Origin: Vulcanimicrobiota bacterium
GTDB taxonomy: Bacteria; Vulcanimicrobiota; Xenobia; Xenobiales; JADMJV01
Assembly (NCBI GenBank): GCA_050250895.1
Contig: JBFWNU010000002.1
Span: forward strand, 535,659 to 599,658
DNA length: 64,000 bases
Direction: 5' to 3'
The notes below the pieces were generated by a model. It had not been told where the DNA came from. It was given only the letters and a program-made list of their open reading frames with translations, and made no database searches. Shown in pieces: positions 3,427-48,119 of the stretch (positions are counted from its first letter, which is position 1; each line of letters starts with the position of its first letter). The translations under genes and the position numbers were made by a program.

Positions 3427-3921
3427 TTAGGAATTCTGGATGATGTTGCCGGTCCAGAGACCGCCGATGCCGCCGCCCAGGGCGCCCCAGAAGATGGCTC
3501 CGCCGGTCAGGGGGTCGGCCGACGCTGCCAGGGCGATTCCGGTGGCGATGCCGGCTACGGCTCCGATGCTGGGAGCGTTCTTCTTCAGGCTGGCCAGGGC
3601 GTTCGGTAGAGCCACGGGCTCGCTTTCGCCGCTGTTGGAAATCAAGTTGCCGACGATGCGGCCGCCCAGGGCGCCGCCGACCGAGCCCCAGAAATAGCTG
3701 CTACCGGTTCCGCCGGTGGTGGCGGCAAAGCCGATGCCGATGGCCGTGCCGGCCAACGAGCCGACGAAGCCGCCGTGGGCCTTGAGAAAGTTGAGAGGAC
3801 CGCCGTTGCCTGAAATCTCGACTTTGTCCTGGGGCGGCTGCGGAGCCGGGCTACCCGGGGTCGGATTGGCGGGCGTGGAGGCTTGATGGACGCGGGGTCC
3901 TTGGATGGCGGTGAGTTTCAT
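3427..3921 (-). CDS. Glycine-zipper membrane protein with Pro-rich N-terminal leader
   Basis: Two internally similar GxxxG hairpins (FWGSVGGALGG / FWGALGGGIGG). RBS AAGGAG. Confidence 0.8.
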   Translation of the reverse strand: MKLTAIQGPRVHQASTPANPTPGSPAPQPPQDKVEISGNGGPLNFLKAHGGFVGSLAGTAIGIGFAATTGGTGSSYFWGSVGGALGGRIVGNLISNSGESEPVALPNALASLKKNAPSIGAVAGIATGIALAASADPLTGGAIFWGALGGGIGGLWTGNIIQNS

Positions 3922-3948
3922 GGGTCGCTCCTTGCTGAATGTAGGTTC

Positions 3949-3981
3949 AGTCTAGAGCGGCGGCCTCAAACTATGCTGAAT
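3949..3981 (-). promoter_or_regulatory. Direct-repeat operator plus -10 (ATTCA-N6-TTTGA-N11-TAGACT)
   Basis: Same spacing as the sites upstream of fliF-like (19271-19325) and carF-like (44123-44155). Confidence 0.5.
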
Positions 3982-4156
3982 CGTCGTCGTCTTGACCCGG
4001 CTTAGGTTTGCAGAACATCGAGATGACCACCAGCGCGGCCAGGGCCAGGTAGGGGCCTCGCTGCAGAGCTATCAAACCGAGGTGGGCCCACGAGAAGGCA
4101 TAGCAGGGAGCCGCCAGCGCGCCGATCAGACCCAGGGATATCAAAATCTTCTTCAT
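3971..4156 (-). CDS. Small exported/membrane protein (61 aa)
   Basis: Signal peptide MKKILISLGLIGALAAPCYA, one TM segment, RBS GAGGAG. Confidence 0.7.
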   Translation of the reverse strand: MKKILISLGLIGALAAPCYAFSWAHLGLIALQRGPYLALAALVVISMFCKPKPGQDDDDSA

Positions 4157-4189
4157 ACCGAAATCTCCTCAAGCGTAGTGCAGTCGTTG

Positions 4190-4480
4190 TCAGCACAGTC
4201 GGGGAGGAGCTCGGCCGAGGCGGCCGCGGCCGTTCGAGGTCTGAGACTTGCGAGGTGGCGCCTCGGGTAGAACCTCGTGGGAAAAAGCACCGGCGGCCGT
4301 GAGCGTGGCCGAGGGGGGCGTGACGGCCAGAGGACCGGGGTCGAGGTCGAGGCTGCACAGCTGTCCGGTCTCGCTGTCGATGGAGGCGGTCTGGCCGTGC
4401 AGGGGAGTGAGGGTAAAACCCACCAGTAGCAAAGCTACCAGGGCGATGAGAGTGGATAGTCTCTTGCTCTTACCGGTCAC
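4190..4480 (-). CDS. Signal-peptide protein ending in RAPP (putative ribosome-arrest leader)
   Basis: Hydrophobic N-terminus and C-terminus GRLGRAPPRLC. Confidence 0.6.
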   Translation of the reverse strand: MTGKSKRLSTLIALVALLLVGFTLTPLHGQTASIDSETGQLCSLDLDPGPLAVTPPSATLTAAGAFSHEVLPEAPPRKSQTSNGRGRLGRAPPRLC

Positions 4481-4509
4481 CGCCTACGAGTATACCACAG
4501 CCGGCGCTG

Positions 4510-5823
4510 TTAGCGTAACCGCTCTTCGACCTTGCGGCGCAATTGCCCGAAGCGAGCCATCTTGGCCCGCTCCGAAAGATTGCCGGCGGCCGAGGTCACC
4601 CCGGCTACCACCAGGCCGACGATGGGGCCTCCGAACAAGCATCCGATACAGCTCAGCAGCTGCCGATTGTCTTCTGACGCATCCTGAAAATGGCAGGGGA
4701 GCCGGTAGATGTTAGAGGTGATGGCTTGGCGCAACGAGGCGGCGCTGCTGCGCAACTCTTCGAGTCGTTGGTCGAAGGCCGGGTCACGAATCACGGCGAA
4801 CTCGGAAAGGTCGGTGCGCAGCCCCTCGGCCTCGGCCAGGCAGATCAGGCCGGGCACCCCCAGGTCGAGCTGGAGCGGGTCCATCGTGACTCCGTCGATG
4901 ACGAAGCGAACCTCGCTCGGCCCCTCCAATCCCAACGGCACGGCCATGGCCTGGCGGCAGGTCAGCGGCATGCCGAGGGGCTGGCGGGGGCCCACCAGCT
5001 GGGTGCAGAAAGTGGGAAAGTTCGAATCCGCGTGGGCGGTGACCGAATGGCATTGATAATAGGCCCCGTCCTCGGGCGTGAGATGGCCGATCTCGGGACT
5101 GGCCACCGCCAGGGTCCCCTCGGCGTCAAGCTCGAGGCGTTGGCCCAGATAGAAGCTCGGGCTCAAGCCCCGGTGCCAGCGGTGCACCAGCGGGCGCGGC
5201 CAGGAGGCCTGTAACCGGTCTTCATTGAGATAGATGGGAACGGCCGAAAAACTACAGCGGGCCAGCACTTTCTGGTGCTCGGCGGCCAGGTTACGGGCCA
5301 GGTTGGTCAGAGTCGAGGGTCGCCGCATGGCGAAGCGAACCCAGCGCTGCTTGCGTCCCGTCGCCCACTCGGGACATTGCTCGAGTCGGACCAGGGCCAG
5401 GTCGTCGGGGGTGATCTCGAGGCCGTAGCCCTGCCCGCTACCCCAGGCCGCCCAGACGATCTTCTCGGGCTTCATGGCCCAGGCAGCGTTGAGGGCCACC
5501 GACAGGTGACGCAAGGCCGGGCTTTCGCCATCGGCCGACGAGAGGGACGAGACGACCTTAGGAGCCTGAAACAAGGGACTGCCTTCCGGCAGAGAACTGG
5601 TGACATCGACCGCCAGGCGATCCAGCCGGATGTCGATCTCTTCGGCCCCCGCCCGGACCAGGCCCTGGACTAGCTTGAGCAGATAAAAACAAGGCTCGGA
5701 GAGCTGGAATTGTCGCAGCTTCTCGCGAGCCTTCTGGAGGTCGACCATGAACTGGCCGCTCGAATCGAGGGTGCCCCCCTGGTCTCTCAGGCTGGATAAC
5801 AGTTGTTCGAGCGAATCGGACAC
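4510..5823 (-). CDS. Hypothetical protein with degenerate HSP90/GHKL-like N-terminus and C-terminal TM
   Basis: DSSGQFMVDLQKAREKLRQFQL...YLLKLVQ..GAEEIDI N-terminus; hydrophobic C-terminal segment. Confidence 0.6.
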   Translation of the reverse strand: MSDSLEQLLSSLRDQGGTLDSSGQFMVDLQKAREKLRQFQLSEPCFYLLKLVQGLVRAGAEEIDIRLDRLAVDVTSSLPEGSPLFQAPKVVSSLSSADGESPALRHLSVALNAAWAMKPEKIVWAAWGSGQGYGLEITPDDLALVRLEQCPEWATGRKQRWVRFAMRRPSTLTNLARNLAAEHQKVLARCSFSAVPIYLNEDRLQASWPRPLVHRWHRGLSPSFYLGQRLELDAEGTLAVASPEIGHLTPEDGAYYQCHSVTAHADSNFPTFCTQLVGPRQPLGMPLTCRQAMAVPLGLEGPSEVRFVIDGVTMDPLQLDLGVPGLICLAEAEGLRTDLSEFAVIRDPAFDQRLEELRSSAASLRQAITSNIYRLPCHFQDASEDNRQLLSCIGCLFGGPIVGLVVAGVTSAAGNLSERAKMARFGQLRRKVEERLR

Positions 5824-5848
5824 CCTCTATTTTTCGGTGTGACTGCGG

Positions 5849-7812: not shown

Positions 7813-9648
7813 TTAGGCCGCTTCACCGTGGTCAAACTGGCGGCCGAGGGCGGCCCCGGCTTTGGCCAGCACGTAGCTGCCCCCCAGCACGCCCACGGCT
7901 GTCCCCAGGGTGGCGCCGGTGACGCCTCCGGCGGCTCCCGCCAGGGCGGTGCCGATGGCCCGTCCGACAGCCGCGCCGCCCCAACCCCCCGCCACCGAGC
8001 CGACCACTCCGCCAGCGGCTGCGCCGCCGACGACTTTGGCCAGGAAGGCCTTGTCGCCTTTGGTCAGGGCCAGCGGATCGGCCTCGGCCGCGGCGCCTTT
8101 GTTTTTCCAGGCTGCATACAAACCATAGCCACCCAGTCCGACGCCAGCCCCGGCCAGACGACCCCAGAACATTCCCGCCGCCGCCCCCACGGGGCCACCC
8201 AGGGCGGTGCCGATACAGCTGCCGGCGAGGCTGCCCAGGGCCAGGCCGCCGATGGTCGAGAGCACGGCTCCCACCGGGCTGGCCGGAGCTGCCTTGAGGT
8301 CGAATCGGTAGCGGTCATCGTCGAGGTCGACTCCGGCTTTGGCCATCTCGGACTGGGCCGCGCGGCCCACCATTCCGAAGGGACCGGTGGCTAGAGCCAG
8401 GATGGTGTCGGCCTTCTGGTTGGCCTCTTCAATCGTCATGCTGCCGTTGGCTACCTGGCCGCCGAGCACGAACTGCGAGCCCGAGGCCAGCAGGGCCAGG
8501 GGAGCCCCACCGGGCACGAACAGCAGGGCTCCGCTGGCCAGGTTGAGCTTGCCTTCGAACTTCTTGACTTCGTCGTCCTGGCGCAATCCTTCGCTTAGCT
8601 GGGTCGCTCCCCGAAAGAGGGCGGCGGGTGCCAGCAGGGACCCGGCCAGCTCCAGCACGTTGCGGGCATAGGGCACGGCCCCGATGGCCTGGGCCACCGA
8701 CTTGCCAGCGCTGCGAACTGCGGGACGATCCATGGCCACATCTACCACGCCCTGTTGCTGCGAGGCGTCGATGGCCCGAAACTTGTCGGGCGCGACCTGG
8801 CGCAATCCCTCGGGATTGGTGTGGTACTCGAGATAGGACTCGGCATAGTCCTCCATGCGATTGGTGTGGGCATAGTCGCTCACGAAGGGTGTTTTGCCGA
8901 ACCCGCCCGACCACTGGCTGCGGCTGCCGATGGGGCCGAAGCCCTGGGTGAAGTCGAAGGTGTGACCGACCTCGTGGATGGTCACCTTCTCGCCCCAACC
9001 CGGGTACATCATCTCGTCACGGTCCAGGAAGATGCGACTTTGCGAGAACAGGGGAGTGGCCAGCCCGGACGCTCCCACCGCCTGCAGGCCCCGGCCTACG
9101 TCAATGGTGGCCGCGCTGGTGACGCCGCTTAAAGGCAACGAATCGAGCCCTCGATAGATGATCTCTTGCTCGGCGGCGGTGGCTCCCACGATGGTGGGAT
9201 AGAGGAACTTGGGCAGCGACTTCAAGGCCAGACCACCGGCCAGGGCCAGGTCGACCCCTCCCAGTTTGCCGGGCTTGCTGTTGGCCTCTTCGGCCGCTTT
9301 CTTGGCCGTCTTCTGGCTGAGCATGTAGGAGCCGATGGCTCCCAGGCCGCCGGCCAGAGCGGCGCCGCCGGTCAAGAGATAGAGGTTGCCGGCCTGGAGC
9401 GCGATGGGAGCCATGATGAGCGAGCCCACGGTCATCCCCACCAGTTCGCCCGCGTAGGCAGCCGAGAGATCGCGCAGGTAAGAGGTCGCCTGGACCTTGC
9501 CCTGGGCCACGAAGTGATTGATCCGCTGGCTGCGGTCGGGAGGACCGGTCTCGACCTGATCGGCCGGCTCGGCCGGAACGGACGCGGTAGCCGGAGCAGC
9601 CGGTCGAGAGCGCTGGATTTGGGTGGAAGGCAGGGCTTGGATTCTCAT
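7813..9648 (-). CDS. Zn-metallopeptidase (HExxH, anthrax-LF/zincin-like) with glycine-zipper TM regions
   Basis: HEVGH plus SDYAHTNRMEDYAESY; long Gly/Ala hydrophobic tracts; Pro/Ala-rich leader. Confidence 0.75.
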   Translation of the reverse strand: MRIQALPSTQIQRSRPAAPATASVPAEPADQVETGPPDRSQRINHFVAQGKVQATSYLRDLSAAYAGELVGMTVGSLIMAPIALQAGNLYLLTGGAALAGGLGAIGSYMLSQKTAKKAAEEANSKPGKLGGVDLALAGGLALKSLPKFLYPTIVGATAAEQEIIYRGLDSLPLSGVTSAATIDVGRGLQAVGASGLATPLFSQSRIFLDRDEMMYPGWGEKVTIHEVGHTFDFTQGFGPIGSRSQWSGGFGKTPFVSDYAHTNRMEDYAESYLEYHTNPEGLRQVAPDKFRAIDASQQQGVVDVAMDRPAVRSAGKSVAQAIGAVPYARNVLELAGSLLAPAALFRGATQLSEGLRQDDEVKKFEGKLNLASGALLFVPGGAPLALLASGSQFVLGGQVANGSMTIEEANQKADTILALATGPFGMVGRAAQSEMAKAGVDLDDDRYRFDLKAAPASPVGAVLSTIGGLALGSLAGSCIGTALGGPVGAAAGMFWGRLAGAGVGLGGYGLYAAWKNKGAAAEADPLALTKGDKAFLAKVVGGAAAGGVVGSVAGGWGGAAVGRAIGTALAGAAGGVTGATLGTAVGVLGGSYVLAKAGAALGRQFDHGEAA

Positions 9649-9701: not shown

Positions 9702-9738
9702 TTCCAGGTTGATCCCGCAGGACGCCGAAGCCCGTTCC

Positions 9739-11871
9739 ATGCTCGAGTGGATCCCTGACCGACCGGCTTTGTGCAGCGATGCCAGTTGCACTCTTGACGT
9801 CTTAATCCGCATCACGCCGCCCCGACCCCAGCACCAGCAAGCGCGGCCCGACCTCAACCTCAATCTGGTCATCGACCGCTCGGGCTCGATGGAAGGGGCC
9901 AAGATCGACCTGACTCGCAAGGCCGCCTCGCTGGCGGTGCGTTACCTTCAGCCGAGCGACTATCTATCCATCGTGATCTTCGACGATCGCGTCGACGTGC
10001 TCATTCCCAGTCAGGCCGTCCGTCGCCCCGAGCAACTGTTGCCGCTCATCGAGGGCATCCAGGTGCGAGGCTCGACGGCCCTCTTTACTGGCTGGGCTCA
10101 GGCCGCCACCGAGGGAGGGCGCAACCTGTCCGCCACCCGCCTCAATCGCGTGGTGCTGCTCACCGATGGCCAGGCCAACGTCGGCCAGACCAACCCCGAC
10201 GTTATTTGCAACGCCGTCCACCAGGCCGCCGTCAACGGCCTGCAAACTACCACCCTGGGTTTCGGAGCCGACTACAACGAGGCGCTGCTTCGTTCCATGG
10301 CGGCCAGTGGGGGAGGCAACCACTTCTTCGTCGAGACACCCGAGCAGTTGACCCAGGTTTTCGAGGTCGAACTGGATGCCCTGGCCTCGACGGTCGGAAG
10401 CCAAACCAGGCTGCGCCTCTTGCCGCTGGCCGAGGGGGTGACCATCGAGCCCCTGGGCGAACTCGAGAGTCGCGACGGAGCCTATCTCCTTTCTGATCTG
10501 ATCGCCGACTTTCGCATCGAGCAGCTTTTCCGGCTGCATCTGCCAGCCGGCGTGGCCGCCCCCGTGACGGCCCGCCTCAGCTGGCACTCGCCCCAGGACG
10601 GCCAGGAGCACGGCCTCGACATCCCGCTCGAGTTGCCCCTGATGACCAGCGCTCAGCGCCTTGCCCTCGAGGCCCATCCCGAGGTGGAACAGAGCCTGGC
10701 CGTGGCCATGGCCGCCCGGGCCCGCCGTGAAGCCATCGCGGCCATGCAGGCCGGACGCCGCGACGACGCCTCGCGCCTGCTCGACCGGGCTCTCCGGACC
10801 CACAAGCTGCCCGAGGGTGAAAAGAGCCGTCTCGAGCGCCTCAAGGGTACCCTCGACCGCGGCGATGTCAACGTGACCAGTAAGATGGCCATGTCTCAGA
10901 GTTATAGCTACAGTCGCGGCAGCGTCAACCTGGGCGGCATCGAAGGCCACATCATCGAAGGTCTGGTGACCAGCGGCACCCTGCCTATTCGCCTGGGCGC
11001 CTTCGTGACCCGGGGCCCGGCCGCCGCGCAGCGCGGCCAGGCCCGGAGCCAGGGCATGCTGCGGGGTCTTTTCGCGGGCGCCGCGGGCAGCGAGGCCGCC
11101 GCTCTCTCGTTAGCCACCCTGCGGGCCCTGGGCTACGATACCAACCCTCTGCAGTTCAACGTGAACCTGGTCGAAACGCTGGCCAAAGCTCCGGTAGCCC
11201 AGCCCTCGGCCTCATTTCTCGAGTTCCAGGAACGCTTCCGCCAGGGGGTCAAGTGGCCCCACACGGGGGTGGCCACTCCCGATGCCGGGGCCTTGCGGCG
11301 CATCGCCCCTCTGACCTTGGGGCGCCTTCGCCAGGGAGGCGTCAAAGCGGTCGCTTTCGTGCTGCTCGGCAGCGCCCTGACTCACAACAACACCGCTTCG
11401 CTGGTGAGCTGCCTGTGGTTCTCGTCGCTGCTGTGGGAGCTGATGGCCCAGCCTTCTCCGCCGGCACCCCACCGCTATCTCGATCACTTTCACCGCCTGG
11501 TGGGCGACCTCGAGACCGACACCACCTATCGCTCCCGCGCTCCCCGCTATGACGGCTGGGAGGGCAAGCTCTCGGAGTACACCGCCCTGGTCATCCCCGA
11601 AGCCCGTGCCCGCGGCCTGACGGTAGCCCAGGCGATGGCCGAGTGGGGCTCGGACGATTACCTCCTGGCCACCGTACCCAGTCTCCTCTATCTGCTCGAG
11701 AGCCACGCCCACCAACCCCAGCGCTGCCTACTCGAGGCCGCCGCTGCCCAGGACCCGGGCACCCTGGCGGCCCTGGCCGGCGCGGTCATGGGGGCTCTGC
11801 ACGGCACGCTACCCGACTGGAAGCTGGCGCCCGGCATCAACCAGGAGATCGAAAGGGTCTGCCGCTCCTAG
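9739..11871 (+). CDS. vWA domain fused to a degenerate ADP-ribosylglycohydrolase-like domain
   Basis: MIDAS DRSGSM and LLTDGQAN; ARH-like AGALRRIAPL, LTHNN and LAGAVMGALHG. Start chosen at ATG 9739. Confidence 0.8.
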   Translation: MLEWIPDRPALCSDASCTLDVLIRITPPRPQHQQARPDLNLNLVIDRSGSMEGAKIDLTRKAASLAVRYLQPSDYLSIVIFDDRVDVLIPSQAVRRPEQLLPLIEGIQVRGSTALFTGWAQAATEGGRNLSATRLNRVVLLTDGQANVGQTNPDVICNAVHQAAVNGLQTTTLGFGADYNEALLRSMAASGGGNHFFVETPEQLTQVFEVELDALASTVGSQTRLRLLPLAEGVTIEPLGELESRDGAYLLSDLIADFRIEQLFRLHLPAGVAAPVTARLSWHSPQDGQEHGLDIPLELPLMTSAQRLALEAHPEVEQSLAVAMAARARREAIAAMQAGRRDDASRLLDRALRTHKLPEGEKSRLERLKGTLDRGDVNVTSKMAMSQSYSYSRGSVNLGGIEGHIIEGLVTSGTLPIRLGAFVTRGPAAAQRGQARSQGMLRGLFAGAAGSEAAALSLATLRALGYDTNPLQFNVNLVETLAKAPVAQPSASFLEFQERFRQGVKWPHTGVATPDAGALRRIAPLTLGRLRQGGVKAVAFVLLGSALTHNNTASLVSCLWFSSLLWELMAQPSPPAPHRYLDHFHRLVGDLETDTTYRSRAPRYDGWEGKLSEYTALVIPEARARGLTVAQAMAEWGSDDYLLATVPSLLYLLESHAHQPQRCLLEAAAAQDPGTLAALAGAVMGALHGTLPDWKLAPGINQEIERVCRS

Positions 11872-13928: not shown

Positions 13929-15167
13929 TCACGGCGAGAGCGCTCCTGGCACCAGTGGCGGGCCGGCGGCCGGCCAGGGTCCCAGGGCTGACCCGACCGC
14001 CCGGCGTTGCAGAGCGGCATCCCGGGCAGCCCGCCATTCCGGTCGATTCGCGAAGTCTTGGTCGTGCTCAGCAGCGTGGCAACCCGGACACAACAGCTCC
14101 AGGTCCTCCAGTCGATGTCGCCTGGTGTCGGACCAGGCGCGAACGTGATGCACTACCAGGTTACCTCCCGTGCACGAACAACGCTCACAACGGCCCAGAG
14201 CCCGGGCATACACCGCTCGCACCAAGCCAACCGGAAGCCCCGGCCGGGTCTTGGACCGAACCGGTTGCAGCGGCAACTGCTCGGCTTGGCCACTTCCAGC
14301 TGAGAGTCTCGTGTCGGCGCAAGCCACCACGATGCCGGGTTCTTTCATCGCCTCGTCAACGGCCTCCGGCTCGGCCGGTAAGAGTCCGCGGTCGGTATCA
14401 TAAAAGCCCTGGCCGGTCTCGGCGTTCACGTGAACGATGACCTGATGTCGCACTTTGCTGCGATTGTCGGCTGAGGCCAGCACCAATCTAGCCATCTCGG
14501 CCACCGCCGTCTCCTTGCTCACCCGCTTGCCCCGGCGGGCCTCGACCAGACGCTTCGCCTGCTCGTAGCGAGCGTATTGCTCGGGCGTCATCAACAGAGT
14601 GACCTGCCTTAACTTCGGCACTTCGGGGACCGTGGCTGGCTGGATGGTGGGGGTCGAGGCCGGCTTCGCGGGCTCATCTACCGTTAGCTCGGGCTGACTC
14701 TGGCGAGCTTCGAGCGAGGCCTTTAGGGCCTGGCCACGCTTGTGCTGCGTGGGAGTCACAGCGACGGCGCGCTCGACCGCCTGAGCCTTGTTCTTGAGAG
14801 CGAACTCCAGCATTTCGGCCTCGTTCTCAGGCGTCGTGATCCGCTTCAGCGCGCGGACCTTGCTCCAGCAGAGTCTGCCCTCGCGAAAGGCTTCTGAAAG
14901 AAGAGGCAGTTGCTCGAGAGTCTTGGCCAGACTGAGAAGTTCGCCGGCCTTTTGGGGATGCAGATTTAAATGGGTAACGGCGTAACCCACGGCACTGCCG
15001 CTGCCCAGGTGGCGATAGAGGCCGCTGCGCTCGGTGGCCAGCAGATGGGCTGCCAGTTGCCACTCGCAACCAAAGGCCCGCTGGCTCGCCTGGTGATTTC
15101 TTTGATGGAGTTCCTGGTGGGAGAGTTGTTGCAGCGATTGAGAAAACACCGATAAAGTTAAAGACAT
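13929..15167 (-). CDS. DUF222-like domain plus C-terminal HNH endonuclease
   Basis: LEQLPLLSEAFREGRLCWSKVRAL; CERC..VHHV..LLCPGCHAAEH. RBS GGAGGT before ATG 15167. Confidence 0.88.
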   Translation of the reverse strand: MSLTLSVFSQSLQQLSHQELHQRNHQASQRAFGCEWQLAAHLLATERSGLYRHLGSGSAVGYAVTHLNLHPQKAGELLSLAKTLEQLPLLSEAFREGRLCWSKVRALKRITTPENEAEMLEFALKNKAQAVERAVAVTPTQHKRGQALKASLEARQSQPELTVDEPAKPASTPTIQPATVPEVPKLRQVTLLMTPEQYARYEQAKRLVEARRGKRVSKETAVAEMARLVLASADNRSKVRHQVIVHVNAETGQGFYDTDRGLLPAEPEAVDEAMKEPGIVVACADTRLSAGSGQAEQLPLQPVRSKTRPGLPVGLVRAVYARALGRCERCSCTGGNLVVHHVRAWSDTRRHRLEDLELLCPGCHAAEHDQDFANRPEWRAARDAALQRRAVGSALGPWPAAGPPLVPGALSP

Positions 15168-15459
15168 AAGACCTCCGGTCGAAGAAGAATCAAGCAGTGA
15201 TCTCATTTTACTCAAGAAAATCACCTTGATCAACGCGTTCAAACGGCTTGGCTGCAGCGTTTTGTTGGCTCTGCGCAGGTTTGCGCGAGAAGGGCTTGCG
15301 GTGGCGAAACGACTTCGCCAGCCCTTGGTGTCGTGGGAGTGGCTGACAGCGCCGGGCAGGGGCTGCTGCGAGGAGTTTGAGGTCGGACCTGTGTTCACTA
15401 GAAAGCTCGTCTCTGCGAATGTTAAGGTTTGATAATATTGTGCGGCGGCATCGGACTCG

Positions 15460-16050
15460 CCAGGACCGCCAACTGGAAGACGGGCTTCGCAGGCCCACCC
15501 CGGCCAGCCCGAGGGCCGCGACCCGCCGGGCAAGACCAGCCAGGTGCCGACGACGGTCGCGGCGTCTGCAAGACGGCCCCGCCCCTTGCCAGCGGCGCCG
15601 GGCTCACCCGCCGCGCCGAGTCCTTCCAGCTGGAAGACGGGCTTCGCCAGCCCACCCCACCCAGGCCCGGTAATTCGGCAGCACCCACTGACGAGTTCGG
15701 CGTACCACGCTGCCGAGTGCCAATCCGCGAGCCCGCTCGCGGAGTCGCCGAGTCCACGCGACTCGCCAGCCCCGAGTACTTCCAGCTGGGGGCCCAACTC
15801 GCCGAGCCCGCCACCCGCCGAGAACACCAAGACAGGGCTCGCCTCGCGGCGCCGACTACTTCCAGCTGGAAGACGGGATACGTCAGGCCCGCCTCCCAGG
15901 CCCGACAGATTCGGCAGCCCACACTGCCGAATTCGGCGTGCCATGCTGCCAAATGGCCTACCCGTCGCCCCTCGCCAAGACCCGCCAAGCCCCCCGGGCT
16001 CGCCGAGGCCACAAAAGCTCGCCGAGGCAAGAGCTCGCCGAGCCCATCGG
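15460..16050. repeat. Right direct-repeat flank of the HNH gene, with TTCCAGCTGGAA palindromes
   Basis: Palindromes at 15624 and 15860, partial copies at 15469 and 15780. CCACGCTGCCGAGTG is shared with the left flank. Confidence 0.75.
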
Positions 16051-19270: not shown

Positions 19271-19325
19271 GTTTACAAGCCTTTAAGTTGCAATTCACTT
19301 CTTGTTAACACTCGCGCCCTATGCT
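19271..19325 (+). promoter_or_regulatory. Four 11-bp-phased NTTNA half-sites plus -10 TATGCT upstream of the fliF-like gene
   Basis: GTTTA 19271, TTTAA 19282, ATTCA 19293, GTTAA 19304, then 11 nt to TATGCT. Confidence 0.6.
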
Positions 19326-19398
19326 GAAAAGGCAGAGGTCGATCCCATGCGTGGCGGCGCGGGTCGACCGGGTCCACAAACGTGAGGAGTGTGCATTG

Positions 19399-20904
19399 AT
19401 GGCCACTGGTATTCATTCTGGCATTCGCAGTAGCAAGACAAACAAGACTGCCCATCCCCCCAAGACTCCCCTGAGCTGGTTGCTCGAACTCGAACCCAGG
19501 TTCAAGAAAGGGCTGTTGCTGTTGCTGGCTCTACTCTTGCTCTCGGGTGTCGCTCTCAAAGGATGGCAACAGGCCCGAAGCCCCAGGCCGCTGTTTCCTT
19601 TCGAACTCTCGGAACAGAGCCAACGCGAAGTCTCGCTCGAGCTGAGCAGGTTCGGCATCACCCACCAGATCGTTCCCGGGCAGGGTGTGGTGGTCGCTCC
19701 TGAGGATCGCGCCCAGGCCAGTTGGAAGCTCTCGCTCGAGGGCCTGCCCAGACTCCACGATCGACCCGCCGAGGCGAGTGGCTATGCCACCAGTGGCGAG
19801 CGAAAGAAGTTGGCCCTCGAGCAATTGCAATGGGATCTGTCGGCGACCTTGCGTCAGATTCCCCAGGTCGTTCAGGCTCGGGTGCAGATCGCCCGCAACG
19901 AGAGCCCGTTCGCGCGTGAGAAGCATCCCACGACCGCCTCGGTCTATGTCGAAACGCAGCCGGGGCAAGACCTCTCTGGCGAGCAGATCCGCGGCATCTT
20001 TCACCTGGTGGCCTTCTCGGTTCCCGACCTCGAACCCGGCAACGTCAGCTTGATGGGTCCCCAGGGTCCTTACGTGCTCGAAACCGAGCCGGAGCGGGTC
20101 AAGAGCGACTTTCAGAAAGAACTCACCGCCGAGACCACCCGTAAGGTGCAGGCTTTGCTCGAGCGCATCGCTCCCGGTCGCAACGCTCTGGTGGTCAACA
20201 TCGAGTTCGATCTTTCCGAAGTCGAGATCAAGCGAAAAGACTATGGCGGGCCGGGCGAATCCAAGGTGGAGGTGCTGCGCAAGGTCCAGCGTGAAAGCGC
20301 CAATCGGACCGGCAATTCTGACGAGCCGGCGACCGCTTTGAGCCACGACGGCAAGAATTGGGAGTATGAGAAGATCGGCGAGGCCACCAAGGTCATGGCC
20401 GACGAGAGTTATATCTGGACCGTTCACAAGATGCCCCGCGTCAAGCGGTTGAGTTGCGCCGTAGCCTTTGATTCGGCCTATCAGGGTCAGAGCGAGCAGC
20501 TCACCCGTCTGGTCAAGGAGGCGGTCGGATTTGACGGTGCTCGCGGCGACGGGATGGCCGTCGAGTTCGTACCCATGCCGATGACTCCCCCCCGGGCTGC
20601 TTTGCCCCCGGTCGAGCCACCGGTGGTGTCCGAGGGTTGGCTGTCGGTGCCCTCGTTGTTGTTGGGCGCGGCTCTGAGCCTGGGGCTGGGGTTGCTGTTC
20701 ATGTTCTGGTCGACGCGCCGGCCTCGGGTCGAGTTCGAACCGACCATCCTCGAATACAACGGGCCGGCCAACCTGCTCGATCTGCTGAGCACCCGCGACG
20801 GCAACGAGACTGAGACCCGCGTCAATCAGGGCGTCGAGGATCTGGCTCGTTCCGAGCCTCAGCAGGTGGCCCGTCTGATTCGTTCCACCTGGCTCGGAAA
20901 CTGA
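19399..20904 (+). CDS. fliF: FliF/YscJ-like MS-ring protein (orphan)
   Basis: Two TMs; VVQARVQIA..SPF...TASV, VAFSVPDL...VSL, KRLSCAV, AVGFDGARGD; C-terminal PQQVARLIRSTW. RBS GAGGAG. Confidence 0.8.
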   Translation: MATGIHSGIRSSKTNKTAHPPKTPLSWLLELEPRFKKGLLLLLALLLLSGVALKGWQQARSPRPLFPFELSEQSQREVSLELSRFGITHQIVPGQGVVVAPEDRAQASWKLSLEGLPRLHDRPAEASGYATSGERKKLALEQLQWDLSATLRQIPQVVQARVQIARNESPFAREKHPTTASVYVETQPGQDLSGEQIRGIFHLVAFSVPDLEPGNVSLMGPQGPYVLETEPERVKSDFQKELTAETTRKVQALLERIAPGRNALVVNIEFDLSEVEIKRKDYGGPGESKVEVLRKVQRESANRTGNSDEPATALSHDGKNWEYEKIGEATKVMADESYIWTVHKMPRVKRLSCAVAFDSAYQGQSEQLTRLVKEAVGFDGARGDGMAVEFVPMPMTPPRAALPPVEPPVVSEGWLSVPSLLLGAALSLGLGLLFMFWSTRRPRVEFEPTILEYNGPANLLDLLSTRDGNETETRVNQGVEDLARSEPQQVARLIRSTWLGN

Positions 20905-32755: not shown

Positions 32756-34870
32756 GTGGACCCAGATAGGCTCATCGACTATCTGGTCGACCATCACCTG
32801 GTCACTCGGACCGAGGTGGCCGTGCTGGCGGGCACCGATGCTCAGCGCGGCAAGCCGATCGAACGGGTGCTGGTCGACGAACGGCTGGTCGATGAGGAGC
32901 AGATGCTCGAGGCCATGGCCGCGGTCTATGGCCTTTCTTTGGTGAACCTGGGCCCCGACAATCTCGATCCCGAGATGGCCAGCCAGATTCCCCGAGCCCT
33001 GCTCGAGAGTTTTTGTGTCTATCCGCTCCAGCGTGAGGAAGGCTCGAGCACGCTTCTCTTAGCTACCACCGATCCTTTCGACATCACGGTAGAAGACACG
33101 TTCCGTTACATCACGGGCCTGCAGATACGCCCCGTATTGGCGCGTCGCCACGAGATCGAAGGGGCTATTTCGGGCGAACTCCTCGGCCGCGAAGGCTTTC
33201 ATCTGCTGGTCGAACAGATTCCCGCCGATTACACCCTCGAGCGGCTCCAATCGATGCTCACTCGCGAGGAGGACTACTCCTCCGAGTCGGCTACTCCCAT
33301 CATTATCCTGGTCAGCGCCATGCTGGGCGAGGCAGTGCGGATGAAGGCCTCGGACATCCACATCGAGCCTCAGGAAACCTACCTGAGGATCCGCTACCGC
33401 ATTGACGGCATCCTGCGCACTATCGTCGAGTTACCCAAGCGGGTCGAAAAGGCCTGTGTTTCCCGAGTGAAGATCATCTCGGGACTCGATATCAGCGAAT
33501 CGAGAAGGCCTCAGGACGGTCGCACCAGCTTGCGGGTGGGCACCAGCCAGGTGGACATGCGGGTGAGCGTGATCCCTACCTTTTTTGGAGAGAAGGTGGT
33601 CTTGCGCATTCTCGACCGCAGCGCCGTCTTGCTCGAACTCGAACAGCTCGGGCTCAGCTCACAGGACTACCAAACCCTGCACGGTTTTTTGCAGTCGAGC
33701 CATGGCATGATTTTGAACACCGGTCCCACCGGCTCGGGCAAGACTTCGACCCTCTACGCAGCTCTTCGCATCCTCAACACGATCGATGTCAACATCATGA
33801 CCGTCGAGGATCCGGTCGAGTATCAGGTGGCTGGAATCAGCCAGGTGCAGGTCCATCCCAAGGCGGGCGTAACCTTCGCTTCGGCTCTGCGCTCGTTTTT
33901 GCGTCAGGACCCGGACATCATCATGGTCGGAGAGATCCGCGACCTGGAGACCGCCGAGATCGCCGTTCAAGCCGCCCAGACCGGGCATCTCGTGTTTTCG
34001 ACTCTCCACACCAACGACTCTCCCACGACGCTCACTCGCCTGATTCTCATGGGACTCGAGCCGCACATGGTCGCTGGCTCGTTGTTGTGCGTGGTGGCCC
34101 AACGCCTGGTTCGGCGGCTTTGTCGCCATTGTCGCCAGGCCACTGAGCTTAGCGAGGATCAGGCCAGACTGCTGGGTCTGTCCTACGAACAGGTGGTGCC
34201 GAAAAGGCTGTTCAAAGCAGTGGGATGCGAACACTGCGATCAGCGTGGCTATCGTGGTCGGCTGGGTTTGTTCGAGTTGTTGCCGGTAACGGCCGCCGTG
34301 CGCCAGCAAATGCTCGAGGATCCCTCCGAGGAGTTGCTCTGGAGGGTGGCCCGCAGCGAAGGGATGCGCACTCTGCTCGAGGATGGCATCGTCAAGGTCG
34401 AGGCGGGTGACACCAGTCTCGATGAACTGTTGCGTGTGGTGACGGTGCGCCGGGCTCGCAATCTTGAAGGCGCCGCCCCGGCTTTGCTCACGTCGGCCCA
34501 ATGCGTGGCCGATGTCATGACCACAGAGGTGGTGTCGATCGACTCCGATACGGCCCTGCCCGAGATCGTCGAGCGTTTTCTTGAGCATAACATCAGCGGG
34601 GCTCCGGTGATCGATAGCCAGGGCAGCGTGGTCGGCGTGGTATCATTCAACGACCTGGCCGTCTACAGTCTGGCTCCGCCGGTCCTGGGGGGGCTGCATC
34701 TCAAAGCCGAAGACGTCATGAGCCGCACCACCATCAAGTTGAGCCCTCACGACTCTCTCGACAAGGCGGCCCAGTCCTTTCAGCGGCACAAGGTGCACCG
34801 GCTACTGGTCGAAGAGCGGGGCGCGCTCGTGGGCGTGGTCACGCCCCTCGATCTGCTTTCGGCGAAATGA
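32756..34870 (+). CDS. GspE/PilB-family ATPase fused to a C-terminal CBS pair
   Basis: ASDIHIEP, GPTGSGKT, LRQDPD, STLHTND and tetra-Cys; CBS pair DVMT...GAPVID / DVMS...HRLLV. Confidence 0.92.
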   Translation: MDPDRLIDYLVDHHLVTRTEVAVLAGTDAQRGKPIERVLVDERLVDEEQMLEAMAAVYGLSLVNLGPDNLDPEMASQIPRALLESFCVYPLQREEGSSTLLLATTDPFDITVEDTFRYITGLQIRPVLARRHEIEGAISGELLGREGFHLLVEQIPADYTLERLQSMLTREEDYSSESATPIIILVSAMLGEAVRMKASDIHIEPQETYLRIRYRIDGILRTIVELPKRVEKACVSRVKIISGLDISESRRPQDGRTSLRVGTSQVDMRVSVIPTFFGEKVVLRILDRSAVLLELEQLGLSSQDYQTLHGFLQSSHGMILNTGPTGSGKTSTLYAALRILNTIDVNIMTVEDPVEYQVAGISQVQVHPKAGVTFASALRSFLRQDPDIIMVGEIRDLETAEIAVQAAQTGHLVFSTLHTNDSPTTLTRLILMGLEPHMVAGSLLCVVAQRLVRRLCRHCRQATELSEDQARLLGLSYEQVVPKRLFKAVGCEHCDQRGYRGRLGLFELLPVTAAVRQQMLEDPSEELLWRVARSEGMRTLLEDGIVKVEAGDTSLDELLRVVTVRRARNLEGAAPALLTSAQCVADVMTTEVVSIDSDTALPEIVERFLEHNISGAPVIDSQGSVVGVVSFNDLAVYSLAPPVLGGLHLKAEDVMSRTTIKLSPHDSLDKAAQSFQRHKVHRLLVEERGALVGVVTPLDLLSAK

Positions 34871-43176: not shown

Positions 43177-44091
43177 CTAGGCTTTGGACCAGCGCTGGAT
43201 GGTTCCGTCTTCTTTGATTTTCTCGATGAAGGCTTTGCGGTTCTCGTCACGGTGGGCCAGGAACTCCTCGTGGGTGATCTCGCCCAGGGCCAGCGACTTG
43301 ACGCTGGGATCCTTCCAGGAGTTTGGCTCGGCCCCGGTCACCTTCTGGATGCCGACCTCCCATTTGCGCCAGAAGTCATTCTTGGCCAGGGTTTCGTTCC
43401 ACATGCCGTTGACGATGCAGTAGTTCTGATCCCACGGCGGACGATGGTGGGTGTTGTGATTCTCGGGGGTCTGGGCCAGGCCGACCTTCTGCAGCACTTT
43501 GGCCAGGGCCGGGGGATTGTCCATGTGGGCCCAGCGGTGGAAGCCCTGAGCCATGAACCCGGCGCTCAAAAAGGCCAGACCGGCCGAGGCCACGGCATAG
43601 TGCGGGTTGGCCAGCGCCATGGCTCCCATCGGAGCCCACAAGAAGCGACCTGCGTTCCACAGGTTCGAGGTCAGGCTGACCTCTTCCATGTCGTGGGCAT
43701 GGTAGTGGTGATGGATGAACTCGCGAGCCATCTTGCCCACCATGCCCGGTTTGTCGGGGTTGGGATAGTTGTCGACCCAGTGGTGGAAGATCCCACTGCC
43801 GAAGTCGGCAGCCACATAACCTGCGGCTGCTCCGCCGAGAGCCATCGCTCCGGCTGCCACTTTGGCGCCGATGCCCGGCTGGGCGGCGATCTGAGAGAGG
43901 ACGTTGTAACTGACCCAGGCCCCCGTGCCAACCACGGCCGCGGCCGCGAGCTTGTGCATGAGCGGGGTCTTGTAATCAGGGTTCTTGGGCGTGAAACTGT
44001 CTTGAGGGGCAGCCGTCTCGGGCTGTTTGCTAGAAACGGTGGGGGCGGGCGCGCTGGGGTAGGCGCCTCGGGATAAAGTGTTGACCTGCAC
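43177..44091 (-). CDS. CarF/TMEM189/FAD4-family lipid desaturase with a Pro/Ser-rich leader
   Basis: DFGSGIFHHWVDNY, FIHHH, HRWAH, HNTHH and NYCIVNGMWN. Confidence 0.88.
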   Translation of the reverse strand: MQVNTLSRGAYPSAPAPTVSSKQPETAAPQDSFTPKNPDYKTPLMHKLAAAAVVGTGAWVSYNVLSQIAAQPGIGAKVAAGAMALGGAAAGYVAADFGSGIFHHWVDNYPNPDKPGMVGKMAREFIHHHYHAHDMEEVSLTSNLWNAGRFLWAPMGAMALANPHYAVASAGLAFLSAGFMAQGFHRWAHMDNPPALAKVLQKVGLAQTPENHNTHHRPPWDQNYCIVNGMWNETLAKNDFWRKWEVGIQKVTGAEPNSWKDPSVKSLALGEITHEEFLAHRDENRKAFIEKIKEDGTIQRWSKA

Positions 44092-44122
44092 GATTTTCTC
44101 CTGCCGGTCACTCGCTGATTGT

Positions 44123-44155: not shown

Positions 44156-44156
44156 G

Positions 44157-44527: not shown

Positions 44528-45355
44528 CTAGGGAGCGTTGGTTTCGACGAACTCCAGCAACTCTTGCAGGGGAACGGCTCGCGGGGGGTAGAGGACGACC
44601 CGGTCTACGCCCATCGCGGCATAGCGTTCCAGGTCGCCCTCAGCCAGTTCGCGCGGGGTGACGGTGATTTCCAGTTTACCCAGTTCAGGGGGACGCTGGT
44701 AGCGGTCGGCGGCTTCTTTTAGGCCCTCGAGATGTTTGACCAGCTTTTCGGGAGTCATGGCAAAGCCGTACCAACTGCGGGCCATCTGCACGCTGCGACG
44801 GTAAGTGGCCCGATGATAGCCGCCCATCACTAGCGGCAGCGGGCGTTGGTCGGGTCGAGGACTGGCGCTCACCCCCGAGAAGCTGACGAAGTCAGATTCG
44901 AAGCTGGCCGGTGCCTGGGTCCAGATGGCCTGCATGGCACCCAGATAGTCGTCGGTGCGGCGGGCTCGTTCGGCCAGGGTAACCCCCAAAGCCTTGAACT
45001 CCGGTTCGAGGTAGCCGACCCCGATGCCCACCAGCAGACGACCCTTGGAGAGCACGTCGAGGCTGGCCAACTGTTTGGCCAAGACCAGAGGCTGGCGCTG
45101 GGGCAGGATGATCACGCCGGTGCCCAGGAGCAGCCGCTCGGTGACGGCGGCTGCGAAGGTGAGGGCCACTACTGGCTCCAGCAACCGTTCCTCGGGCTTG
45201 AGGGGGGCAGGGGCTTGCCAGGGATCGGGCAAGACGATGTGGTCGCCGGCCCAGAGCGACTCATAGCCAAGCTCTTCGGCCCGCCGGGCGACCGCTCGAA
45301 TACCGTCGGGATAGCTACAGGCGTCGTGATTGAGAGAGAACAGTCCGAACTTCAT
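44528..45355 (-). CDS. LLM-class (luciferase-like, probably F420-dependent) oxidoreductase
   Basis: AEELGYESLWAGDH and LAKQLASLDVLSKGR. Confidence 0.92.
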   Translation of the reverse strand: MKFGLFSLNHDACSYPDGIRAVARRAEELGYESLWAGDHIVLPDPWQAPAPLKPEERLLEPVVALTFAAAVTERLLLGTGVIILPQRQPLVLAKQLASLDVLSKGRLLVGIGVGYLEPEFKALGVTLAERARRTDDYLGAMQAIWTQAPASFESDFVSFSGVSASPRPDQRPLPLVMGGYHRATYRRSVQMARSWYGFAMTPEKLVKHLEGLKEAADRYQRPPELGKLEITVTPRELAEGDLERYAAMGVDRVVLYPPRAVPLQELLEFVETNAP

Positions 45356-45731
45356 AGGCCGGCCTTCGGCCGCGTTAAGGAGCGGCCCTGCGGGCGAGGA
45401 GCGCTCGCTTCGCTCACGGGCAGCGCTCGCTTCGCTCACGGGAGAAGGAGCTCTCGCTGCGCTTGAGGGAAAAGGAGCGGCCCTGCGGGCCGGGATAAGG
45501 GGCGAAGCTCGCTGAGCTCGCTTCGAGAGATGGAGAGCGGCCGTTCTTTCCCGCCGACGCAGTCGGCGCTCCCTGTCGACGCGCAGCGTCGAAATCTCAG
45601 CCGCAGGCTGCTCCCTGTCGGCCGCAGGCCGAAACGGCTCCTTCTCCCGGCGGCGGCACGCCGCCGCTCCCTGTCGACGCGCAGCGTCGAAATCTCAGCC
45701 GCAGGCTGCTCCCCGTCGGCCGCAGGCCGAG
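45356..45731. repeat. REP-like modular hairpin repeat cluster 3
   Basis: Long blocks near-identical to cluster 2, in the same orientation. Confidence 0.88.
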
Positions 45732-45757
45732 CAGGGGTGGGACCCGAAGGCGACGGC

Positions 45758-46759
45758 ATGCGATTTGGAGCTTTTACCCCCCAGGGTTGGCGTCTCGACC
45801 TGGTCGACGTCGAGCCGGGGTTTCCTCAGTACGTTCGGATGCGCGAGGTCGCCCTCGAGGCCGAGCGCCTCGGTTATGACAGCGTCTGGCTGTATGATCA
45901 CTTTCATACGGTGCCCGAAGCCTTGCCCGAGGCCACCTTCGAGGTATGGACGGCCACGGCCGCCCTGGCTGAAGCCACTTCGACCATCCGGCTGGGTCAG
46001 ATGTGTGGCTGCAACATTTATCGCCCTCCGGCCCTGCTGGCCAAGATCACGGCCAATATCGACGTCATCTCGAACGGCCGGCTGGACCTGGGCCTGGGGG
46101 CCGGGTGGTATCAGCACGAGACCGTCGCTTACGGCTATCCGTTCGAGAAGCCGGCGGTCCGCATCGGGCAGCTCGATGAGGCCGCTCAGATCCTCAAAGG
46201 CATGTGGACTCAGGACCATTTTGCCTTCGAGGGCAAGTACTACACGGTCGGCAAAGGCCAGGTCAAGGATTACCGCGGCCAACCCGCCGAGTTGAAGGGG
46301 GCCATCAACCATCCCAAACCGGTGCAAAATCCTCATCCTCCCATGTGGCTGGCTGGTGGGGGAGAGCAGTTGACCTTGCGCACGGTGGCCCGCTACGCCG
46401 ACTACTCGAACTATAGCGGCAGCATCGGGGACGTGCAGCACAAAAATCAGGTACTCGACCGCCACTGCGAGCAGCAACAGCGCGACCCCGCCGCCATCAC
46501 GCGCACCATGAACATCAATGTCATGCTGGCTTCAGAGCACGAGATCACGAGTCTGCTCGAGGCCAGTGGTCGCGGTCCCAGGGATATCGCCGCCATGAAG
46601 AAGATGCTGTATCCCACCGAGCCTCAGGCCCTTATCGACTGTTTGGCCGAGTATCGTGACCTGGCTCGCATCGACTACATCATCGTCTATTTTCCCGACG
46701 CAGGTCGCGGGCCTTCCCTGGAGCGATTCGCTAAAGAGGTGGCTCCGGCTCTGCGATAG
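45758..46759 (+). CDS. LLM-class (probably F420-dependent) oxidoreductase
   Basis: GYDSVWLYDHFH, LAKITANIDVISNGR and AGGGEQLTL. Confidence 0.92.
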   Translation: MRFGAFTPQGWRLDLVDVEPGFPQYVRMREVALEAERLGYDSVWLYDHFHTVPEALPEATFEVWTATAALAEATSTIRLGQMCGCNIYRPPALLAKITANIDVISNGRLDLGLGAGWYQHETVAYGYPFEKPAVRIGQLDEAAQILKGMWTQDHFAFEGKYYTVGKGQVKDYRGQPAELKGAINHPKPVQNPHPPMWLAGGGEQLTLRTVARYADYSNYSGSIGDVQHKNQVLDRHCEQQQRDPAAITRTMNINVMLASEHEITSLLEASGRGPRDIAAMKKMLYPTEPQALIDCLAEYRDLARIDYIIVYFPDAGRGPSLERFAKEVAPALR

Positions 46760-47570
46760 GCCGCCTGGTGTTGGTGCTGTGCAGCTGTTTTAGGACGTCT
46801 TGCAGGCGGCTGGTCACCCGAGCACTGATCGAGCCGCGCGAGGGAGCGCGCTGCTCGGGCCCGCGGGTAGCCTCTTGATAGGCGTCGGCCAGGCTGGCCA
46901 GCACAGCCATGCCTAGAAAGCGACCGCGGGCCAGAAAATACCGCACCTGCCTCTCGCTGGCCTCGCGACTGAGGCGCCGCAGAGTGTAGGTGTGCAAGCC
47001 CAGCACCTGGCTGGCGCTGTAGTTCCGCTGAGCAAGCTGGCCAGCCAGCTGGTTTGAGGCCACCGTATCCGAGATGTGCTTGGTCGAGAGGTAGTCTTCA
47101 TAGAGTTTGGCCACATCGGGATCGGGCTCACTCTGCTGGGTGTCGTCGACCAGGGTGCTCAGTTGGCCCAGTTCGACATTTAGATCCAGAAACACCGAGT
47201 CGGCTTTGCGAGCCAGGGCATAAGTGAGCGCACGACCCAGGCTTTCGGGGGAGAGTTTTGTCTTCTCGAGAAAATCCTGGGCGCCGGCATGGATGCAGGC
47301 CATGCCCAATTCTTCGTCGCCGGTGGCCGTGAGCACGATGATCGGGGTGGCAAAGGCATGGGCGTGGACGCGGGCGACGGTCTCGAGGCCGCTGCTGTCG
47401 GGGAGACCCAGATCGAGCATGATGACGTCAAAATCGGTCTTGCCCAGAGCTGACAGGGCCGCCTCGAGGGTCTCGACGTGTTGAACCTGGGCCTGCGAGT
47501 CCCCTAGTTGCAGATAACATTCGACGATAACGGCTTGTTCGGCGGCGTCTTCCACCAGGAGCGCGTGCAT
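46731..47570 (-). CDS. Response regulator receiver with a helical C-terminal domain
   Basis: LLVED, LDLGLPDSSG and AGAQDFLEK. Confidence 0.85.
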   Translation of the reverse strand: MHALLVEDAAEQAVIVECYLQLGDSQAQVQHVETLEAALSALGKTDFDVIMLDLGLPDSSGLETVARVHAHAFATPIIVLTATGDEELGMACIHAGAQDFLEKTKLSPESLGRALTYALARKADSVFLDLNVELGQLSTLVDDTQQSEPDPDVAKLYEDYLSTKHISDTVASNQLAGQLAQRNYSASQVLGLHTYTLRRLSREASERQVRYFLARGRFLGMAVLASLADAYQEATRGPEQRAPSRGSISARVTSRLQDVLKQLHSTNTRRPIAEPEPPL

Positions 47571-47606
47571 GGGGAAACCCTTCTGAACCCGACGGGAGAG
47601 TCCCCG

Positions 47607-48119
47607 CTAGCGCGGGACCCTAAGACGAGCCGCTTGCGCGACTTCGGTCAACTGGTGCCAACCATTAATGGGAGTGGCCTCGGTATTGGGGTGTGTACTG
47701 TAATAGATGGTCTCGCCCTGAGAAAGCAGGTTGAAGGCGCCCTCGGGCTTGCAGTTTTGCAGCATTTCGGGATCGCCAGCTTTGAGATAGCCCAGTTCGT
47801 CGAGGGTGCGTAATTCGCCCCGCATGGCGTCTTGCTTCCACTCGGGAAGCGGTGCCTGGCCGGGGGTATAGTGGAACAGTTCTGCCATTTTTCCTTCTGC
47901 GGGCATCGCACCCAGGGCGGTTCGCTCGGTTTGGGCCAGCCAGGGCTGGCCGCTGGGCCTGGCCACCACCGGCGGCGGGGCGCTGTTGAGCACGGCGCTC
48001 TCGGTAGGCACCGACTCTGCGGCGGGTAGGGTGGGCGCCGCCGAAGCAGGGGCCGACTCGGCCTTCGCGACGGGTTTGAAGGCCGAGATCGTCTGGGTTA
48101 TGAGCGAGCGAATCTGCAT
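47607..48119 (-). CDS. Hypothetical protein with a Pro/Ala-rich leader, coupled to the upstream giant gene
   Basis: TGATG stop/start overlap at 48117-48121. Confidence 0.75.
   Translation of the reverse strand: MQIRSLITQTISAFKPVAKAESAPASAAPTLPAAESVPTESAVLNSAPPPVVARPSGQPWLAQTERTALGAMPAEGKMAELFHYTPGQAPLPEWKQDAMRGELRTLDELGYLKAGDPEMLQNCKPEGAFNLLSQGETIYYSTHPNTEATPINGWHQLTEVAQAARLRVPR

Follow-up and report, generated by a model that had tools for sequence, protein, structure and literature searches.

Chlamydial Inc proteins, a large family, begin with a type III signal of roughly 30–40 residues, which is followed by paired hydrophobic segments; the signals are not conserved in sequence, and the proteins pass through the injectisome and are inserted into the host vacuole membrane. 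FlgM, a short and disordered protein, is exported by the flagellar gate, and some FlgM proteins start M-K-I and contain strings resembling D-K-V-E-I-S. Polymorphic, effector-like cargos of type VI secretion systems (T6SS) and extracellular contractile injection systems (eCIS) share N-terminal tags (MIX/RIX, PVC leaders). The export signal of early flagellar substrates is described, in passages of Bryant (2022, eLife, PMC8983047), as small non-polar residues 3–7 from the N-terminus together with a motif recognised by the gate, which lies 30 or more residues into the protein; the two need to be separated by 19 residues or more, with an optimum of 24–30. Published passages on Lysobacter enzymogenes OH11 report that its flagellar type III secretion system exports a protease, a glucanase and other non-flagellar proteins, and those on Campylobacter (Cia/Fed proteins) and Yersinia (YplA) likewise report non-flagellar proteins exported by this route. 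The subject of the present work is an N-terminal leader found on four open reading frames (ORFs) in a 64,000-nucleotide stretch (the window; contig JBFWNU010000002.1, positions 535,659 to 599,658) of the genome of a Vulcanimicrobiota bacterium, which is 9.5 Mb in size with 63% G+C, in 17 contigs and 99.6% complete.

An initial annotation of the window had proposed that the four ORFs share a non-Sec leader and are substrates of a type III-like export system. All four were recovered on the minus strand with the N-termini that it quoted (Table 1). Our leading, though tentative, explanation is that these N-termini are copies of a lineage-specific export leader of the class Xenobia (phylum Eremiobacterota), using a type III route.

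The regular expression given in the initial annotation is, on its own, weak evidence. Applied literally to 351,657 candidate-start peptides of the genome, it finds 31 distinct ORFs, compared with 21 in a composition-shuffled and 16 in a reversed decoy set, which is 1.5–2 times the decoy level. The result obtained with a profile hidden Markov model (HMM) is decisive. The model was built from 12 seed leaders and iterated, and only matches aligned from residue 1 were accepted. In its final form it matches 56 distinct ORFs genome-wide at E≤1e-3, 80 at E≤0.3 and 85 at E≤1, while the shuffled decoys give 0, 0 and 1 matches at the same thresholds and the reversed decoys none at any of them; an earlier, tighter model found 31 ORFs at E≤1e-3 and nothing in either decoy set. 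The genome-wide count that the initial annotation had called for therefore places the family above chance, and the leader heads about 1% of the genes of the genome, not four. These counts rest on candidate-start peptides because the gene caller used was crude and missed ORF2. Two ORFs of negative coding score were removed, and the remaining 83 leaders were kept for study. ORFs 1–3 are members of the family under the final model. ORF4 scored 24.8 bits (E 4.5e-4) in an intermediate model, and since its score falls to 3.0 bits in the final one, it is regarded as a marginal, longer variant.

The leaders are 30–40 residues long and follow a common plan: M-x-I-x-x-[LIFV], a linker of Pro, Ala, Ser, Thr and Gln without acidic residues, and then [DE]-x-[VF]-x-[LTP]-[SG]. 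Position 3 is Ile, Leu or Val in 68 of the 83 (Ile in 59), the remaining 15 having a hydrophobic residue at position 2, and position 6 is mainly Leu, Phe, Ile, Val or Ala. Set against 2000 control N-termini, the leaders are rich in Pro (16.6% against 6.6%) and Ala (17.9% against 9.9%), and poor in Leu (4.5% against 12.6%) and Gly (2.9% against 8.0%). Their first acidic residue is found at a median position of 25 (quartiles 23–27), compared with 11 in the controls. The second motif, in the relaxed form [DE]-x-[VFIL]-x-[LIVTP], is present in 56 leaders, with its acidic residue at a median position of 29 (range 24–38), and the two motifs are about 25 residues apart.

The description of the leader as non-Sec is sound, because a hydrophobic stretch is found in none of the 83: not one reaches a hydropathy of 1.8 or more over 11 residues within the first 35, and none has the h-region of around 10–15 residues near the N-terminus that is typical of Sec signals. 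The consensus also lacks both the RR and the h-region of a Tat signal, and the leader ends in neither A-x-A nor a lipobox. Some leaders carry a Cys-rich insert in the linker, of the type C-x-C-x-x-C-x-x-C (Table 1), which points to a metal site or to disulfides within a tag that otherwise has no structure.

Indications of what the leader does come from homologous proteins that begin in different ways. In the subtilases of Xenobia, the leader stands directly ahead of the pro-domain (...EGEVLVKL), whereas outgroup subtilases have a classic signal peptide at the front of the pro-domain in all four cases viewed (Nomurabacteria, Flavobacteriales, Cloacimonadota and Streptomyces). The genome contains 16 close S8 paralogues; no clear signal peptide is seen on any of them, the starts of two being doubtful. 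A signal peptide is present on three more distant S8 genes of the same genome, and ordinary Sec signals are in normal use there, for example in FlgH, FlgI and FlgA.

The GHL10 proteins, which source annotations call YddW-type lipoproteins, present a similar picture. The best 120 of 7,963 database homologues were classified. In 72 of them a Sec or lipoprotein signal is located just before the conserved mature start (..V.H.RELRGAWVA). A leader scored by the HMM, with no hydrophobic stretch, is present in 16, and another 17 look like leader proteins by eye. The remainder are either unclear or have truncated signals (9), or are too short (6). The homologues P0012 and P0038 (66% and 60% identity) carry lipoprotein signals, while the others of the top 36 have the leader. 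The leader begins at the annotated Met in database proteins that were called independently. Leader and Sec or lipoprotein signals occupy the same position in the protein and are interchangeable among close homologues; they differ in the hydrophobic core, which all 83 leaders lack. Because homologues carry a Sec or lipoprotein signal at the same position, the leader is very probably an export signal, and the simplest reading is that it is a non-Sec one, which does what a signal peptide does but through a different pathway.

The proteins behind the leader have little in common. Pfam (E≤1e-4) names 36 of the 83 cargos and leaves 47 without a family. Those of a secreted type include six subtilases with a fervidolysin-type pro-domain and a MAM-like domain, three large MAM-domain proteins, two clostripains, and peptidases of the M4/M36, M48 and M28/M42 families, together with GHL10, GH32/43/68 and MGH1-like hydrolases, GDSL and alpha/beta lipases, a LysM protein and a PQQ-type propeller. 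Membrane enzymes are represented by four lipid desaturases. One of these is ORF3, where Pfam bears out the cargo proposed in the initial annotation (Lipid_desat, 2.2e-38), and 11 of the 12 database homologues of ORF3 viewed have a leader-like N-terminus. For ORF2, proposed to be a Zn peptidase, an HEVGH motif is visible in the translation, and no Pfam family reaches the cut-off; a weak match to SlyB in the PDB (E 0.035) is a lead only, and a related-locus search queried with ORF2 returned no relatives. For ORF1 the proposed glycine zipper stays under the cut-off (Gly-zipper_Omp, E 0.42), and ORF4 remains without a family.

The leader appears to be confined to one class. The closest homologues of the subtilases come from Candidatus Xenobia, Eremiobacteraeota and Vulcanimicrobiota. 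Of 31 close relatives, 14 match the leader profile (E≤0.01), as do 19 of 121 sampled genomes of the phylum (E≤0.001). All 19 belong to the class Xenobia, where the matches span five families; none of the 77 sampled genomes of other families (other classes) matches. Between 63 and 150 candidates were scored per genome, and the counts are lower bounds: in one genus (g3) none of eight genomes matched the profile, yet its subtilase orthologues have a diverged leader, so that this was a failure of sensitivity. Diverged leaders were seen on the S8 orthologues of two other genera, at seven of ten loci viewed, one of which comes from a 2.4 Mb genome of a different family. No description of such a leader was found in the literature searched, including passages of papers on Eremiobacterota. 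Relatives in a sister family are proposed to be predatory in passages of Paoli 2022, in line with the predatory or host-associated lifestyle that the initial annotation had suggested.

Comparison with the systems introduced above shows which of them the leader resembles. Like the signals of the early flagellar substrates FlgD and FlgE, it is N-terminal, disordered, not cleaved as a Sec signal and in two parts, and its spacing of about 25 residues fits theirs. The FlgD of this genome shares the two-part plan, with a hydrophobic start, a Ser/Ala/Thr linker and QDFLNLL at about residue 29. The second motif is different, being F-x-x-x-hydrophobic in the early substrates and [DE]-x-[VF]-x-[LTP] in the leader. 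A further difference is that the whole sequence of the leader is conserved over some 80 unrelated cargos, and its docking to FlhB-C is only a proposal.

By analogy, this two-part signal would be a better model for the leader than FlgM, to which the initial annotation had likened it. That likeness did not hold up: PF04316 finds the true FlgM of the genome (1.6e-15) and two weak sites (E~0.4), the true FlgM has no leader, and the four proteins of the window give no match at E≤1. The leader proteins also lack the sigma-28-binding domain of FlgM.

The Lysobacter, Campylobacter and Yersinia cases agree with the proposal, as far as the published passages go, in that hydrolases or toxins without a Sec signal use an N-terminal signal and the flagellar gate. 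They differ in involving a handful of substrates without a shared motif, whereas here a sequence-defined leader is found on about 1% of genes. The layout of chlamydial Inc proteins is that of 35 of the 83 leader members. The T6SS and eCIS tags are comparable in their cargos, such as lipases, peptidases, nucleases and pore-formers. A tag of this kind was rejected, the sheath models PF04984 and PF05943 (VipB) having no match in the nearly complete genome. A double-glycine leader with a C39 ATP-binding cassette exporter was rejected too: GG is absent from the consensus, and the single C39 match is in a 233-aa frame. Finally, a few members resemble extended signal peptide regions (ESPR), in that their leader precedes a complete lipoprotein signal; Sec and Lgt processing can be expected for these few, because a lipobox-like signal follows the leader.

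The genome does contain type III gates, the presence of which the initial annotation had asked to be checked, and it has two complete sets of them. The export parts comprise two full-length FlhA, two FliP and two FlhB with NPTH, as well as FliQ, FliR, FliI, FliH and FliJ. One set is a complete operon from flgB to flhA, encoding FliE/F/G/H/I/J, an SLT lytic transglycosylase, a FliK-like protein, hook-like proteins and FliM/N/N/O/P/Q/R. The other is split over two loci and comprises FliI, FliK, FlgD, FlgE, FliP and FlgF/G/A/H/I. Despite the two gene sets there is one flagellin, one FlgL and one FlgK, and one of the sets may build no filament.

A peptidoglycan hydrolase that lacks a Sec signal is encoded in each flagellar set, an NlpC/P60 protein in one and the SLT transglycosylase in the other. 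Eight proteins of the genome have, of FlhA, only the cytoplasmic C-terminal domain (FHIPEP ~320–656), and in some of them it is fused to a helix-turn-helix domain or to a large region of membrane and FliG-like character. Stand-alone paralogues of this kind are present in all 31 relatives, with 2–19 FHIPEP matches per genome; they occur even in genomes with few detectable leaders, and no co-variation with the leader was seen among these relatives. The window itself contains an orphan FliF-like gene, which adjoins genes for a SpoIIE-type phosphatase, a histidine kinase and a response regulator.

Type IV filament genes, resembling those of the type II secretion system (T2SS) and type IV pili, have undergone a very large expansion in this genome. 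By blastp on the crude gene set there are 66 GspF/PilC-like paralogues, one of them confirmed as Pfam T2SSF, at least 17 prepilin-like proteins of 600–750 aa, and 16 smaller pseudopilin-like proteins.

By eye, roughly one in four leader genes is preceded by a promoter-like element, TTTCAG-N5-TTT(C/G)AG-N~10-CTAG(A/G)CT. The start codon usually follows after 5–9 nt, which implies leaderless mRNAs. In the case of ORF1, the element is followed by a 5' untranslated region of about 20 nt that contains AGGAG. A permissive form of the pattern has 98 sites genome-wide, 78 of them with a coding ORF just downstream. Ten of these 78 ORFs score at least 10 bits as leaders, compared with 23 of 2000 control genes, so that the association is about 10-fold enriched and not exclusive; many more of the 78 are leader-like by eye. 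The element may mark the regulon of an unidentified activator or sigma factor.

We hypothesise that the leader, an unstructured tag containing a pair of short recognition elements, is recognised in the cytoplasm by a flagellar-type type III gate, much as the early subunits of rod and hook are. Docking at the gate would fall to the downstream motif, while the hydrophobic N-terminus, at a fixed distance from the docking motif, would enter the gate and open it. On secreted hydrolases the leader has replaced the Sec and lipoprotein signal peptides, and it also heads many Gly/Ala-rich membrane-active proteins. The type III gate as the route has a chance that we put a little short of even, and a number of observations weigh against it. 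The flagellar substrates of the genome do not use the leader: FlgM starts MTVSGSS and flagellin MGFRINQN, FlgD reaches 0.8 bits in the leader model, no leader is present on the genome's rod and hook proteins, and the motif in FlgD/E/G is F-x-x-[LI]-hydrophobic, unlike that of the leader. The NlpC/P60 gene at the flgJ position looked leader-like by eye and was rejected as a member, its 4.5 bits not being significant. Type III signals, unlike this leader, do not as a rule have a conserved sequence. FlhA is found in 116 of the 121 sampled genomes of the phylum and the leader in one class only, so that the presence of a gate does not predict the leader and there is no co-variation of the two to lean on. 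For GHL10 and SlyB-like proteins the usual place of action is the periplasm or the outer membrane, both of which ejection through the flagellar channel would miss. Gly/Ala-rich hydrophobic segments follow within 50 residues of the leader in the 35 members mentioned above, three of them with a lipobox-like string after the leader; in 28 members no hydrophobic segment follows, and in 20 only distant ones. Several cargos are normally cytoplasmic (RNB, ADP_PFK_GK, Flavin_Reduct, DJ-1/PfpI, DAO plus DAO_C of the DAO/GlpD type, Amino_oxidase, and further PAD_porph, a PlsC-type acyltransferase and PHB_depo_C). No direct link between the leader and a type III gate was found.

In a rival explanation, the leader would be the export or sorting signal of another machine, such as an undescribed inner-membrane translocon or targeting factor of Xenobia, or one of the many type IV filament systems. 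Signal swapping shows export and not its route, and such a machine could both carry soluble domains across and let hydrophobic segments out into the membrane, which would suit the 35 members with segments directly behind the leader, the four polytopic lipid desaturases and the periplasmic or outer-membrane families (GHL10/YddW-type and, weakly, SlyB-like). The restriction of the leader to one class, when FlhA is phylum-wide, and the 66 GspF/PilC-like paralogues point in the same direction. We nevertheless consider another machine less likely than the flagellar gate, and it is rather unlikely that Xenobia has its own undescribed pathway with a non-hydrophobic two-motif signal that has displaced Sec and lipoprotein signals on about 1% of the proteome, handling soluble and membrane cargos alike without using the flagellar gate. 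No candidate machine was identified. T2SS-F and pseudopilin-like genes turned up as neighbours of the 83 leader genes and were discarded as a signal, 10 of the 66 GspF paralogues lying within 6 kb where about 8 are expected. The substrates of the known type II secretion and type IV pilus systems are proteins exported by Sec. The other 36 genes examined behind the promoter-like element are diverse; 12 have a Pfam family, and none of these is related to transport. It is improbable that the leader is no secretion signal at all but a cytoplasmic N-terminal tail, serving in docking, localisation, regulation or degradation, in which case membrane cargos would enter the membrane N-in in the ordinary way and soluble ones would stay in the cytoplasm. 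This would account for the enzymes of cytoplasmic type such as RNB or the PlsC-type acyltransferase, for the many membrane cargos whose N-terminus could face the cytoplasm, and for the few members with a complete lipoprotein signal after the leader. It would, however, strand in the cytoplasm the 16 paralogous pro-subtilases, which have MAM-like domains and pro-domains of the secretion type, as well as the clostripains, M4/M36 peptidases, lipases and GHL10, and homologues of 50–66% identity have Sec or lipoprotein signals at the exact position of the leader. An artefact of composition or gene calling, produced by Pro/Ala-rich N-termini in a genome of high G+C, has next to no chance of being the explanation. 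The poor margin of the regular expression over its decoys and the marginal status of ORF4 could be taken that way, but the artefact is refuted by the HMM counts against the decoys, by the independently called starts and by the conservation of the leader on orthologues across genera and families.

Table 1 Positions of leader-bearing ORFs, flagellar genes and other features. Positions without a prefix are those of the window; those with a prefix (C1 and so on) are contig positions.
Feature	Position	Strand	Description
ORF1	3427..3921	-	164 aa; leader, then two Gly/Ala-rich 'glycine-zipper' repeats; leader HMM E 3e-4
ORF1 leader	3811..3921	-	residues 1-37, MKLTAIQ ... PQDKVEIS; HMM aligned from residue 1
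Promoter-like element upstream of ORF1	3949..3981	-	ATTCAG-N5-TTTGAG-N9-CTAGACT
ORF2	7813..9648	-	611 aa; leader, Gly/Ala-rich hydrophobic segments, HEVGH metallopeptidase motif, Gly-rich C-terminus; leader HMM E 2e-5
ORF2 leader	9544..9648	-	residues 1-35, MRIQALP ... PADQVETG
ORF3	43177..44091	-	304 aa, GTG start; leader and CarF/FAD4-type lipid desaturase domain; leader HMM E 3e-4
ORF3 leader	43987..44091	-	residues 1-35, MQVNTLS ... PQDSFTP
ORF4	47607..48119	-	170 aa, no Pfam family
ORF4 long leader-like N-terminus	47982..48119	-	residues 1-46, marginal family member
Annexin-repeat protein, upstream of ORF4	48119-53137	-	1672 aa; at least 4 annexin repeats (Pfam Annexin 2.1e-52)
Repeat-rich protein	123-3251	+	>1040 aa, open beyond window start; no Pfam match
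Two-domain protein	9730-11868	+	von Willebrand A domain fused to ADP-ribosylglycohydrolase domain
HNH protein	13932-15944	-	671 aa, separate ORF with Pfam HNH domain
YscJ/FliF-family protein	19321-20901	+	527 aa, orphan; no flagellar cluster nearby
T2SS-E ATPase	32756-34867	+	
Flagellar basal-body and export genes	C1: 118-136 kb, 555-596 kb, 1290-1296 kb, 1459-1476 kb		
NlpC/P60 peptidoglycan hydrolase	C1:564942-565796	+	after flgI
SLT transglycosylase	C1:1468404-1469048	-	between fliJ and fliK-like gene
Stand-alone FlhA-C	C6:529401-530381, C1:2013982, C1:2475431, C7:121919, C7:117253, C1:1126976, C1:2008860, C8:31716		
Leaders with Cys-rich linker insert	Xenobia subtilase loci L176-L178, C1:2256977-2259259		
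356-426-aa family	C11:101702, C1:3910912, C2:108819, C2:343834, C3:183591, C3:640396		

Some further features of the window and of the surroundings of leader genes are worth adding. The stop codon of the annexin-repeat gene overlaps the start codon of ORF4. Besides the annexin repeats, its product has long Gly/Ala-rich and KALWQKSRELD-type repeats and a C-terminal region without a family. The 356–426-aa protein family listed in Table 1 recurs no more than four genes away from leader genes, and by eye has the look of an HNH/DUF222-type mobile element.

The repeated replacement of Sec and lipoprotein signals by the leader, among homologues of 50–66% identity, is an unusual evolutionary event in itself. 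Secretion signals that can be recognised from sequence are rare outside Sec, Tat and C-terminal sorting tags, and type III signals are normally unreadable in this way. If the proposed reading is true, the leader on some 80 cargos would provide the first directly readable secretome of an uncultured and possibly predatory class. It would also offer a natural system for studying how a non-hydrophobic N-terminal signal is recognised, through its tip, its spacer length and its docking motif, and might yield a portable export tag.

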